In this document: positions 15,536-19,459 of the stretch, piece by piece
Numbering within the stretch: the stretch's first letter is position 1
Layout: each line of letters begins with the position of its first letter
Virus record (IMG/VR): IMGVR_UViG_2671181139_000006
Source: an uncultured virus (IMG/VR IMGVR_UViG_2671181139_000006)
Lineage: Duplodnaviria > Heunggongvirae > Uroviricota > Caudoviricetes
DNA length: 22,219 nt
Direction: 5' to 3' (one strand)
Position numbers and translations under genes: made by a program
Notes under the pieces: model-generated
What the model saw: only the letters and a program-made list of their open reading frames with translations
What the model was told of the DNA's origin: nothing
The model's database searches: none

Positions 15536-16210
15536 ATGGACAAATTTATGGCTACTTTGGGCGAAAACTTAAAAGCAATTCGCAAAGCTAAGAAAATGAC
15601 TCAAAAAGAACTGGCTATGAAGTCAGGTGTCAAACAGTCTGTAATTTCTGACCTTGAGACAGGTAATGCGAAATCGACAGGCTCTATACTTGAGCTGGCT
15701 ACCGCACTTGGTGTTACCGCAGAAGAGCTAAAAAAAGGAATTGTCAGTAAGTTTGACAATAATGTTGAGCCTATAACTAAAAAACTAATTCCCGTTCTTT
15801 CTTGGGTGCAGGCAGGGACAATGACATCAGTAGAAGCTATCGATCCTAATAAAATAAATGAATGGTTGCCACCACTTAGTGCAGATGATCCAGATGGTTG
15901 TTTTTATTTGAGAGTAGTTGGAGTAAGTAATTCCCCTAGATATGAAGAGGGAGACTACATTTTAGTTAATCCAAACTATCAAGTTTGCGATCTAATCGCT
16001 GATGACCTCATCGTTGTTAGAAATAATTCAGACGCAACCTTTAAGAAGCTTGTAATTGAAAGCGACCAGCGCAAATACTTGCAAGCATTAAACCCCAACT
16101 TCCATCCTAATATTATTGAATTTGAAGATGGTATGGAGCTCGTAGGCTTAGTTATTGATGCATTTAGACCATTAGGCGGATCACGTCCAAAGCGTGTTAG
16201 AAAAAGTTAA
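15536..16210 (+). CDS. cI: CI-like repressor (XRE HTH plus S24 peptidase)
   Basis: MTQKELAMKSGVKQSVISDLETG HTH; VQAG cleavage site; GVSNSP catalytic Ser; ATFKKL catalytic Lys. Alternative start at 15548. Confidence 0.95.
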   Translation: MDKFMATLGENLKAIRKAKKMTQKELAMKSGVKQSVISDLETGNAKSTGSILELATALGVTAEELKKGIVSKFDNNVEPITKKLIPVLSWVQAGTMTSVEAIDPNKINEWLPPLSADDPDGCFYLRVVGVSNSPRYEEGDYILVNPNYQVCDLIADDLIVVRNNSDATFKKLVIESDQRKYLQALNPNFHPNIIEFEDGMELVGLVIDAFRPLGGSRPKRVRKS

Positions 16211-16230: not shown

Positions 16231-16434
16231 ATGGACAACTCAAAACTACCAATCAACCAGATTATTGCCCGTATTAATGATGCTGCGAAAAATGGAGAGG
16301 CGTTAGTTCTAACTGCTGAGGAAGTGAGAATCCTTTCAAAAGTTATCGGCGATAAGGTCTTTATTCCCGTACTTACAAATGAACAAGTCGTTCAGTTGGC
16401 AAAAGAAGGAAAGTTGGGGCAGAAAATTAAATAA
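16231..16434 (+). CDS. Hypothetical 67-aa protein downstream of cI
   Basis: SD AGGTGA; ATG 20 nt after the cI stop. Confidence 0.8.
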   Translation: MDNSKLPINQIIARINDAAKNGEALVLTAEEVRILSKVIGDKVFIPVLTNEQVVQLAKEGKLGQKIK

Positions 16435-16518
16435 TAAAAAAAGACCGATGATAAGTCGGTCTTTCCATCCAAGTTTCCTAGGCTTGGATTTGCCAATACT
16501 GCCGTATTAGCCGTTGCG
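16434..16518 (-). ncRNA. Candidate structured antisense sRNA (about 85 nt)
   Basis: Minus strand TGT-GATATT extended -10, hairpins at 16492-16511 and 16467-16489, terminator at 16436-16464. Confidence 0.5.
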
Positions 16519-16560: not shown

Positions 16561-16908
16561 ATGTTTGGAGAATTAATAAAAAAGATTAAGGCTTGGTACA
16601 AAGGAGATCCAGGACTAATTGATAGCAACCCTGCAACTGGTATTGATACAGTTATAAGAGAGCCTTATAGAAGTCCCCTTGCTAAATTGGTAAGCTATTT
16701 TATTAGGCCCATAGGGTGGGCTTACAATTTTTTTATTCAAGAGTGGAAGTTCATTATTACTACGTTTTTAGTCATCCTTAATTTTGTCTACACTCACTCG
16801 ATTAATAAGACCTTTAAGCAAAATAACCAAGAATATTCCAGATGCGAGGTACAGAAAGAAAGGGGAAATGAAATTACTTTTCATTGTTTGAAGAGAGAAA
16901 GCCATTGA
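16561..16908 (+). CDS. Hypothetical 115-aa membrane protein
   Basis: Hydrophobic WKFIITTFLVILNFVY segment; AT-rich; weak SD. Confidence 0.65.
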   Translation: MFGELIKKIKAWYKGDPGLIDSNPATGIDTVIREPYRSPLAKLVSYFIRPIGWAYNFFIQEWKFIITTFLVILNFVYTHSINKTFKQNNQEYSRCEVQKERGNEITFHCLKRESH

Positions 16909-16959
16909 GAAGCTAAACATCGACATCGACAAACAAAAGGTTAAATTGTTTTTACTCAT
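16768..16959 (-). CDS. Possible 63-aa hydrophobic antisense protein
   Basis: MSKNNLTFCLSMSMFSF...FFLYLASGIFLVILLKGLI; start context resembles that of 17455; overlaps the + gene by 141 nt, so may be spurious. Confidence 0.3.
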   Translation of the reverse strand: MSKNNLTFCLSMSMFSFSMAFSLQTMKSNFISPFFLYLASGIFLVILLKGLINRVSVDKIKDD

Positions 16960-16972
16960 ATCTATAAACTCA

Positions 16973-17006
16973 CTGTGAACCCGACACAGCATTAGATCGG
17001 GTGGAG
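16973..17006 (+). promoter_or_regulatory. Predicted H-type RNA pseudoknot adjoining an SD
   Basis: S1 CTGTG/CACAG, 1-nt L1, S2 ACCCGA/TCGGGT, 7-nt L3, then GGAG. Confidence 0.55.
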
Positions 17007-17013
17007 AAGTAAA

Positions 17014-17283
17014 ATGGCTGTATATTCTGTAACTTATGATCTTATTAAATCAAAAGATTACTCCAGAATTATTGAGGGAATAAAAAAAGTTTCTGGTGAT
17101 AATTGGGCGAAACCAACTCGATCACAATGGATCATCACATCAACCAAAACATCTGAACAAGTTAGGGATTTTCTTAAAAACTATATTGATTCTGATGATG
17201 TTTTATTTGTGATCGAGGTTAAGCCAGAAAATTGGGCTTCATGGAATATTCCTAGAGAAACCCTTAATTGGTTGCATTCTTGA
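17014..17283 (+). CDS. Stand-alone Cas2/VapD-like ferredoxin-fold protein
   Basis: 89 aa; VYSVTYDL (Cas2-type YD), DYSRI helix, RSQW (cf. Cas2 QxSVF), DSDDVLFVIEV; SD GGAG. Confidence 0.65.
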   Translation: MAVYSVTYDLIKSKDYSRIIEGIKKVSGDNWAKPTRSQWIITSTKTSEQVRDFLKNYIDSDDVLFVIEVKPENWASWNIPRETLNWLHS

Positions 17284-17455
17284 GTCCATGCCCGCCTACT
17301 ACACCAACACCATTATCGAAGTTTTCTTGCGCTTTGAGGGTGGCTTCAAGAATAGCCTGATCTCCATCAACAAGAGCATCTTCTTGTAAGATGTACGAAC
17401 AACCCATAATTTGAATTTTAGTACCTTTTGGTATAACAGCAATGTTCTTGCTCAT
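17264..17455 (-). CDS. Hypothetical 63-aa protein convergent on the Cas2-like gene
   Basis: MSKNIAVIPKGTKIQIMG...; SD GGAG 6 nt upstream; 20-nt 3' overlap. Confidence 0.7.
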   Translation of the reverse strand: MSKNIAVIPKGTKIQIMGCSYILQEDALVDGDQAILEATLKAQENFDNGVGVVGGHGLKNATN

Positions 17456-17469
17456 AATAAACTCCATAC

Positions 17470-17495
17470 AACCCACCCAGCGTGGGTTTTCTTTT
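17470..17495 (+). terminator. Immunity-region terminator (timm-like)
   Basis: AACCCAC-CCAGC-GTGGGTT followed by TTCTTTT. Confidence 0.78.
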
Positions 17496-17513
17496 GTCTA
17501 TTAAAGCATAAAA

Positions 17514-17576
17514 AATCGGATTTTCTATAAAAATATCGGATTCCCTATTGACTAATAATATCGGAAATGCGATATT
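17514..17576 (+). promoter_or_regulatory. pL with three oL operators
   Basis: TTGACT-17-GATATT (17548-17576); operators at 17514-17529, 17534-17549 and 17559-17574. Confidence 0.85.
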
Positions 17577-17589
17577 TATCTCACCAGAT

Positions 17590-18520: not shown

Positions 18521-19459
18521 ATGAATGCGCCAGTACAACACTCAGGACAGAACCCTTTTGCAGTAGCTACTCCTACTACTCAAGCAATGTCTACAGTTCA
18601 ATCTGATAGTCAACGTGCAATTGCAGAGGTTCAAGCTGCTTTAGTTATTGCTAAACAGTTCCCACGTAACCCAATTGAAGCTTATGACCGGATTATGAAC
18701 GCCTGCCAGCGTCCCGGTTTAGCTCAATCGGCTGTTTATTCTTATGCTCGTGGTGGTACTTCAGTTACTGGTCCATCAATTCGACTTGCGGAAATGCTTG
18801 CTCAGAATTGGGGAAATATTCAGTACGGTATACGAGAATTATCTTCTGAGAATGGCGAATCTACGGTTGAAGCATTTGCTTGGGATGTTGAAACAAATAC
18901 CCGTCAAACAAAGGTTTTTCAGGTTCCACATATACGCTATACCCGTAATGGATCTAAAAAATTAACAGATCCACGCGATATTTATGAATTGGTTGCAAAC
19001 AATGGTGCTCGTCGTCTACGTGCATGCATCTTAGGTGTAATACCAGGTGATGTAATTGATGATGCAGTTAATCAGTGTGAAAAGACAATCCATGCAAGTG
19101 CTGACACTTCACCGGAAGCTGTACAAAAACTTGTGGTTGCCTTTGAGCAATTTAATGTCACCAAGAAAGACATTGAAGATTACATTCAGCGTCGTCTTGA
19201 TGCTATTACAGCAGCCAATATCGTTGCGCTTCGCAAGATTTTCACTAGCTTACGTGATGGAATGAGCTCACCTAAAGACTGGTTTAAAAATGTCACCGTG
19301 AAGGAAGTTGGAGAAGTTCAGGAAGTTAAACCAACTGTACCAGACAACGAGTTCCCGGTTCTCTTAGAGCAGATCAAAGCTGATGCAGTTACTAAAGAGT
19401 ATGTATTAGAAGGCTATGCACTTACTAATGCACAAATAGCTGAGGTAAATGCACTATGA
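18521..19459 (+). CDS. Putative single-strand annealing protein/recombinase
   Basis: 312 aa; SD AGGAG; coupled to the exonuclease; GPSIRLAE and ANNGARRLRACI motifs. Function inferred from synteny. Confidence 0.6.
   Translation: MNAPVQHSGQNPFAVATPTTQAMSTVQSDSQRAIAEVQAALVIAKQFPRNPIEAYDRIMNACQRPGLAQSAVYSYARGGTSVTGPSIRLAEMLAQNWGNIQYGIRELSSENGESTVEAFAWDVETNTRQTKVFQVPHIRYTRNGSKKLTDPRDIYELVANNGARRLRACILGVIPGDVIDDAVNQCEKTIHASADTSPEAVQKLVVAFEQFNVTKKDIEDYIQRRLDAITAANIVALRKIFTSLRDGMSSPKDWFKNVTVKEVGEVQEVKPTVPDNEFPVLLEQIKADAVTKEYVLEGYALTNAQIAEVNAL

Follow-up and report, generated by a model that had tools for sequence, protein, structure and literature searches.

A pseudoknot element at the start of accessory genes in repressor operons of Acinetobacter and Psychrobacter temperate phages: apparently an uncatalogued family of cis-acting RNA

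Introduction

How a gene that is swapped into a prophage gains a working, dosed ribosome binding site (RBS), and whether a pseudoknot that touches the Shine-Dalgarno (SD) sequence helps or hinders initiation, are questions raised by a short leader in a 22,219-nt stretch of viral DNA (IMG/VR record IMGVR_UViG_2671181139_000006, Caudoviricetes), hereafter the window. An initial annotation, made from the sequence alone, had described a pseudoknot in front of a Cas2-like gene and suggested that it might be a translational switch, an RNA ligand or a leader shared by swappable cargo genes. We examined the locus and its relatives by computational analysis.

Results

Layout of the accessory slot

The window is a lambdoid prophage fragment with terminase, replication, cro/cI-like, exonuclease and integrase genes, and named homologues suggest an Acinetobacter origin. 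A cI-like prophage repressor with HTH and S24 domains (15536..16210, + strand; Pfam HTH_3 and Peptidase_S24; phrog_4, E 2e-45) heads an operon in which it is followed on the same strand by a conserved 67-aa gene (16231..16434, phrog_2719), a first cargo ORF of 115 aa with no family match (16561..16908) and a cargo gene for an 89-aa protein with a Cas2-like ferredoxin fold (17014..17283, phrog_1090). A terminator-like hairpin with a U tail (17470..17496, + strand) is the probable end of the repressor-cargo operon. The right edge of the slot is formed by a pL-like promoter match (17548..17576, + strand) within operator-like inverted repeats, whose role we infer from the lambdoid layout. Boxes of the form ATATCGGA, repeated and inverted, surround this promoter at 17510-17577 and are probable oL operators. 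The pseudoknot sits between the repressor gene (15536-16210) and the terminator and pL-like promoter (17470-17576). In lambda, the slot behind cI carries rexAB.

Several other features of the region were observed. Each cargo module in the window closes with a small convergent minus-strand ORF, at 16768-16959 (63 codons, hydrophobic, no PHROG match) and at 17264-17476 (phrog_35189). Both begin in a similar context, GAGTTTAT...ATGAG, and similar ORFs recur in relatives, among them a minus-strand ORF in relative L275 that resembles 16768..16959. After the small conserved gene, an 11-pair hairpin (16438-16466), scored as a minus-strand terminator, stands in for the pseudoknot at that junction in both the window and L275; judging by loose read ends in RNA-seq, this junction type was also transcribed in the runs used below. 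Farther downstream, a 312-aa protein of unknown function (18521-19459, phrog_3657) is encoded immediately 5' of the phage exonuclease gene, a position that is the usual site of a single-strand annealing recombinase.

Geometry of the pseudoknot and its chance level

Stem 1 (S1) is a + strand hairpin at 16973..16989 that pairs CUGUG (16973-16977) with CACAG (16985-16989). Its loop holds L1, a single nucleotide (A16978), and the 5' strand of stem 2 (S2), ACCCGA (16979..16984). L2 is absent, loop 3 (L3) is the 7-nt CATTAGA (16990..16996), and the 3' strand of S2, UCGGGU (16997..17002), is the cargo-side half. The SD sequence GGAG (17003..17006) abuts S2 and belongs to neither stem; from the end of S2 to the ATG at 17014 there are 11 nt. 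The coordinates given in the initial annotation for S1, L1, S2, L3, GGAG and ATG were all exact. In an H-type fold, a short L1 spans a 6-bp S2 and a longer L3 spans S1. The loop lengths in the family fit this geometry, with L1 of 1-3 nt, L2 of 0-1 nt and, in 100 of 101 members, L3 of 6-15 nt; L3 is variable across members, with GA frequently at its end. As judged from the alignments, the element is an H-type pseudoknot, with two interleaved stems and compensatory change in both.

On both strands of the window this is the sole compact 5+6 Watson-Crick H-type knot. Since 60 dinucleotide-resampled windows contained on average 1.17 such knots each, the pairing alone is not beyond chance; a knot directly before an SD and a start codon occurred in none of the 60. 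Nested folding was unremarkable (z of +0.7, -0.75, +1.2 and -1.75 in four folds). The covariance model matched one copy of the element in the window, and no repeat of it was found. The window copy resembles a type I-F CRISPR repeat, a likeness absent from the rest of the family. Stretches 16963-16989 and 17455-17482 share TAAACT...AACCC-like letters, at the left edge of the element and before the right-hand terminator; this microhomology is a possible joint of two modules in the window phage and is too short to weigh.

Distribution of the family

A 17-mer query consisting of S1 and its loop matched at least 120 viral stretches, in at least 67 distinct contexts. With the small gene that follows cI as an anchor, 75 of 79 loci carried one copy of the element and 4 carried none. 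The element comes right after the stop codon of the small gene in 73 loci, 4-5 nt after it in most relatives. At E <= 0.05, a covariance model with only S1 paired matched in 72 of the 151 Acinetobacter genomes searched; its successor, at E <= 0.001, placed the element in 58 of the 151. True members were also present in three further genera of the same family (L502, L505, L508, L647 and L649). A protein-only search with the Cas2-like alignment returned 17 loci: 6 with a knot of the Acinetobacter type, 8 with a diverged knot that was parsed by eye, and 3 distant ones with no knot. Three of the 8 are titled Psychrobacter, and pattern searches brought this Psychrobacter type to 22 distinct elements. 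As chance matches, lying within ORFs or lacking context, we discarded 36 of 53 viral matches and 33 of 42 pattern loci, 12 of the 42 having been selected by hand for resemblance. In 101 of 128 members the element is preceded on the same strand by a repressor-like ORF, usually within 1.5 kb (flanks of 1-2.5 kb were examined).

The element was not found beyond the Moraxellaceae in the order- and class-level samples searched. The order-level sample gave 16 weak matches besides G001, and the 4 that were inspected are non-members; the class-level sample gave one besides G001, also a non-member. Cas2-like homologues at L359-L362, L530, L531 and L540, including those of Flavobacterium and Paenisporosarcina, have no such leader. 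Recurring CTGTGA-N6-CACAG matches in many genomes were rejected as chance, all 6 that were checked being inside one conserved long ORF.

Two-copy loci were seen (L047, L370, L408, L410, L473-L475, L486 and L490), in which one copy is usually degenerate and each copy precedes its own cargo gene, forming short cassette chains.

The Rfam check proposed in the initial annotation, run on the window and 12 family loci, returned nothing near the gathering score or over the element, and phage B1251 has no annotated RNA feature at the corresponding place. We found no published description of the element. The supplementary motif sets of PMC10690425 and PMC5737381 might contain it unnamed, the former listing, among candidate motifs of DNA viruses, 17 linked to Acinetobacter and 1 to Psychrobacter. 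The pseudoknot element is a real and apparently uncatalogued family of cis-acting RNA of Acinetobacter and Psychrobacter temperate phages.

Compensatory change and strand signal

Alignment A4 comprises 105 matches to a model fitted to S1 only. In this alignment, S1 is paired in 95.7% of cells and 4 of its 5 pairs are compensated, that is, changed on both sides. S2 is paired in 90.8% of cells with 3 of 6 pairs compensated, its outer pair being unpaired in 30 of 103 cells. Compensated S2 cells numbered 8, compared to 1.3 in shuffles, and none of 500 shuffles scored as high. The compensation at L410:1035, one of three A-U cells at its S2 pair in A4, was discounted because S1 is broken in that copy and the 3' arm resembles a remnant of the end of another gene.

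The Psychrobacter-type leaders, which were found via the protein alone, align in register with the Acinetobacter type (MAFFT). In alignment A5, which joins both subfamilies in 40 hand-picked rows of which related ones are not independent, S2 is 93.8% paired versus 74.8% after shuffling. Four of its 6 pairs are compensated (A-U/C-G/G-C, C-G/G-C, G-C/A-U and A-U/G-C/C-G), and by neither of two pair-counting measures does S2 rise above the shuffles (494 and 429 of 500). About 7 independent S2 compensation events were counted by eye. In these alignments both stems are maintained through compensatory change, the outcome that the covariation check suggested in the initial annotation was to look for.

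Among inner S1 pairs and S2-intact copies, terminal pairs being left out, G-U outnumbered A-C 31 to 10 (p 0.0015), an excess that favours an RNA read from the + strand. For S2 across all of A4, broken copies included, the counts were 15 G-U versus 20 A-C.

Cargo genes and their exchange

Unrelated genes of many kinds follow the pseudoknot element. The 120 ORFs downstream of it fall into 46 BLAST clusters, the biggest being the Cas2-like family with 14. Among 45 cargo representatives scanned, 10 match PADLOC models (BstA, PDC-S42, PDC-M11A, M53A, M63A, M66A, beta/PD-Lambda-2, RmrA, a GajA-like ATPase and WYL). Pfam adds HicA, HipA_2, KTSC and P63C, finds no SSB family among the 45 and leaves the majority without a match. 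The BstA homologue (L013:486-1439, - strand; PADLOC E 1e-113) lies directly behind the pseudoknot in a prophage of the Acinetobacter type; the word 'Acinetobacter' is absent from the main text of the BstA preprint (bioRxiv 2020.07.13.199331). The commonest cargo is an unannotated pair of 333 aa and 167 aa, seen in L243 and 22 other anchored loci. Its representative matched no PADLOC model, and its one match in Pfam was below threshold. This pair is a candidate new defence system.

Behind one anchor gene, 73 loci carry 16 cargo types. Upstream of the junction these loci are 87% identical; in 101 of the 120 pairwise comparisons between cargo types, identity is lost at positions 17-28, where loop 3 starts. 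Likeness to named phages such as YMC/09/02/B1251 and Ab105-2phi also ends at loop 3 in blastn. From these comparisons, loop 3 appears to be, in most cases, the main break point between cargo types, and the earlier suggestion of a leader common to swappable genes is upheld by the 46 clusters and by the breaks in this loop. S2 is not intact in 5 of the 16 cargo types (by our own tally, 23 of the 73 loci), so the element is dispensable for some cargo.

Link to translation initiation

No more than 22 nt separate the end of S2 from a start codon in 79 of 92 S2-intact copies compared to 4 of 13 S2-broken copies (Fisher p 7e-5, copies counted without regard to kinship), and in 22 of 22 elements of the Psychrobacter type. 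S2 ends 9-14 nt before the start codon in 74 of the 92 intact copies. The element has a fixed position relative to the SD and the start codon, and this link, together with the compensatory stem changes, bears out the earlier proposal that the pseudoknot is tied to translation initiation.

The SD (GGAG or GAGGTG) lies outside S2, abutting it in the Acinetobacter type and following it after several nt in the Psychrobacter type; in TCGGGAGG variants, the final bases of S2 could also form part of a longer SD. Loop 3 as an anti-SD was rejected, since it pairs with the RBS worse than shuffled loop 3 does in 77 of 101 members, and for the same reason there is no conserved OFF hairpin. The predicted opening of the RBS by the knot is small (0.54 to 0.61), and in the window copy the change goes the other way (0.49 to 0.44). 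In 47 of the 92 intact copies, S1 begins 0-16 nt after an upstream stop codon. In 40 of the 92 this stop is 24-262 nt away, so translational coupling is possible and not required. In the window the nearest upstream stop is 64 nt before the element.

Transcription

The initial annotation had placed a possible promoter, TCGACA-16-TAAATT, at 16920-16947. This site lies inside the 63-codon minus-strand ORF (16768..16959) and matches a promoter at 9 of 12 positions, in a region that holds 6 such sites versus 7.2 expected. Of 105 family members, 1 has this site, and 12 have any 9/12 match within 70 nt upstream. The promoter proposal is not supported.

Two RNA-seq studies supplied 3 runs, whose raw reads were mapped at 85% likeness on L415, a relative of the window locus whose element copy has a degenerate S2. 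In the three runs 65, 58 and 13 reads ran from the upstream gene through stem 1 into the cargo leader. Coverage of the cI operon was strongly stranded (about 20 to 1), the sense call assuming the usual library orientation. In this related prophage, the repressor transcript carries the element in sense orientation. Read ends did not accumulate at the element in the 3 runs, which is a weak test, as the fragments were random and S2 of this copy is degenerate. They did pile up at L415:1476 (119 and 31 molecules in the two studies), close to where the small conserved gene ends; this could reflect either RNA processing or an artefact of the alignment.

The Cas2-like protein

The 89-aa ORF (17014..17283) has a confidently predicted structure (pLDDT 92.9). 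Cas2 proteins are marked by a ferredoxin-like fold with an Asp after strand 1, and the predicted structure has both. Its fold matches to TT1823 and BPSL1038 (Z 8.8, rmsd 2.4-2.6, about 80 residues aligned) are only just above the common background of that search. Y8-D9 are invariant, and UniRef names include 'SinR family'. A ToxN-like fold was absent from the fold listing, in which the best folds are Cas2-like. No cas1 or CRISPR context was found around the ORF, which lies in a prophage immunity region with no CRISPR repeat in the Rfam scan. The best PDB sequence match had E 0.28, Foldseek gave no match at E <= 0.001, and Pfam, NCBIfam and PADLOC gave none. Of the earlier description of this gene, the Cas2-like ferredoxin fold stands; a special link to the element does not, the family making up 14 of the 120 downstream ORFs.

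Discussion

Comparison with known systems

By analogy, the element would be functionally closest to the SD-adjacent pseudoknot of repZ, although it falls outside that group. As in the IncI, IncB and IncL-M rep leaders (ColIb-P9 repZ, pMU720 repBA), a hairpin loop pairs with bases that lie immediately 5' of a free SD (PMC4705826); this holds for the Acinetobacter type, whereas the Psychrobacter type has a gap of several nt. The repZ and repBA knots are long-range, are induced by termination of a leader peptide and compete with an SD-masking stem and an antisense RNA. In contrast, our element is compact (30-40 nt), has no conserved masking stem or L3:RBS hairpin, shows stop distances of 0-262 nt and serves dozens of unrelated genes.

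The T4/T2/RB69 gene 32 operator, to which the initial annotation had likened the knot, is also an H-type phage knot of about 28-30 nt located 5' of an RBS. However, in that operator more than 40 nt of unstructured, UUAAA-rich sequence must separate the knot from the RBS, and the gene 32 product controls its own synthesis (PMC535899). In the present family the corresponding spacing is 0 to about 8 nt, and the downstream products fall into 46 unrelated clusters with no SSB among the 45 representatives scanned, so an operator of that type does not account for the element. Pseudoknots in the initiation regions of rpsO (S15), tisB and timP are handled by protein S1 and the 30S subunit (PMC3858243, PMC11295053), but each is tied to one gene, unlike the element; the rpsO knot includes coding sequence and must melt, and the tisB knot is a distant standby site.

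The slot itself corresponds in position to lambda rexAB and BTP1 bstA, and one cargo is a BstA homologue. In BTP1, bstA is situated 3' of cI and is expressed by the lysogen (bioRxiv 2020.07.13.199331); its aba element acts as DNA with direct repeats, and the preprint's account of it does not mention a pseudoknot leader.

Alternative explanations

The compact knot of the Carnobacterium antarcticum preQ1-I riboswitch, 1-10 nt from an unsequestered SD, represses sterically (PMC10018353), and its geometry relative to the SD is that of the present element, which counts against promotion of translation. A similar brake or gate is accordingly a possible though doubtful explanation here: the folded knot would obstruct the 30S subunit just 5' of the SD, would keep potentially toxic cargo low, and would open once S1 is melted by a ribosome that finishes translating the upstream gene, or once a phage or host protein binds the knot. 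The distance of 9-14 nt from S2 to the start in 74 of 92 copies fits such an arrangement, as do cargos that include BstA, HicA-like, HipA-like and Cas2-like proteins and the upstream stops within 16 nt of S1; the conserved S2 sequence could reflect a protein ligand. Yet the SD is unpaired with no conserved alternative fold, many of the cargo proteins are small and give no hint of being toxic, the distant stops, the window's included, mean that coupling is not obligatory, and any ligand is at present a candidate only. A riboswitch that sequesters the SD, such as SAM-II or preQ1, does not describe the element, whose GGAG is outside the final stem; the preQ1-I riboswitch depends on its ligand, whereas the element has no Rfam match and little conserved loop sequence. 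Type III toxin-antitoxin loci (ToxIN, CptIN, TenpIN) have tandem pseudoknot repeats and a terminator between the array and the toxin gene. The further suggestion of an antitoxin RNA of this type, or of a small-molecule riboswitch, acting on the Cas2-like protein is very improbable. It could draw on a compact H-type fold beside a gene whose product has a predicted Cas2/VapD-like nuclease fold; however, the window has a single copy with no repeats and no terminator before the ORF, S2 ends 11 nt from the ATG, the cargo is of 46 unrelated clusters, and a 1-nt L1 and variable L3 leave little conserved pocket.

Two other readings place the function outside initiation. The knot might, after cleavage in the A/U-rich upstream stretch, cap the 5' end of the cargo mRNA and thereby uncouple its decay from that of the repressor mRNA. 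The A/U-rich 5' flank of most members, the stable stems and a position at the start of the intergenic gap would suit such a role, but the constant distance to the start codon is more in keeping with initiation and read ends did not pile up at the element in the admittedly weak RNA-seq test; we consider it unlikely. Less probable again is that the element is a DNA boundary only, a short conserved stretch of homology or a palindromic site bound by protein, serving cargo exchange or repression, in which the pairing is incidental. Identity between cargo types does stop at the element, S1 is retained where S2 is lost, and the window encodes a phage exonuclease; against this stand compensation in the non-palindromic S2 across genera, the G-U excess on one strand and the tie between S2 integrity and the start codon. 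The element is probably also a crossover landmark, which leaves S2 unexplained.

A portable initiation module

Since the SD lies outside the stems and there is no conserved OFF hairpin, the best reading is that a cis-acting, probably constitutively folded H-type pseudoknot serves as a portable translation-initiation module, promoting or insulating, in the accessory slot of Moraxellaceae prophage repressor operons. We hold this tentatively, at somewhat less than an even chance, with promotion or insulation modestly favoured over damping. With some 30 nt directly before the SD locked up in the knot, variable upstream RNA would be kept from invading the RBS. By analogy with repZ, tisB and timP, the knot and its A-rich 5' flank may form a docking point for the 30S subunit via protein S1. 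Any gene swapped in behind the knot would then be translated at a set level in the lysogen. Because swaps break mostly in loop 3, the two halves of the knot would be divided between backbone and cargo: S1 and the 5' strand of S2 would remain with the phage backbone, the 3' strand of S2 and the SD would come with the cargo, and the knot would re-form across the junction. There are precedents for activation. In repZ the pseudoknot strand immediately 5' of the SD is activating (PMC4705826), the timP and tisB pseudoknots also activate, such translation-activating pseudoknots being described as rare (PMC11295053), and protein S1 melts the rpsO knot on the 30S subunit (PMC3858243).

An extension of the portable module, which we regard as speculative and improbable as a whole, is a split lock-and-key leader in which the backbone supplies S1 and half of S2 and the cassette the other half and the SD, so that only compatible cassettes would be expressed properly. 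In the same scheme a shared gate, worked by a protein that binds or melts the knot, would turn on the prophage's full set of defence genes upon superinfection, or turn them off when the prophage itself is induced.

A 50-nt model marks this hypervariable slot to within a few bases, and the slot houses known and candidate anti-phage genes. The model can therefore be used to mine new defence genes.
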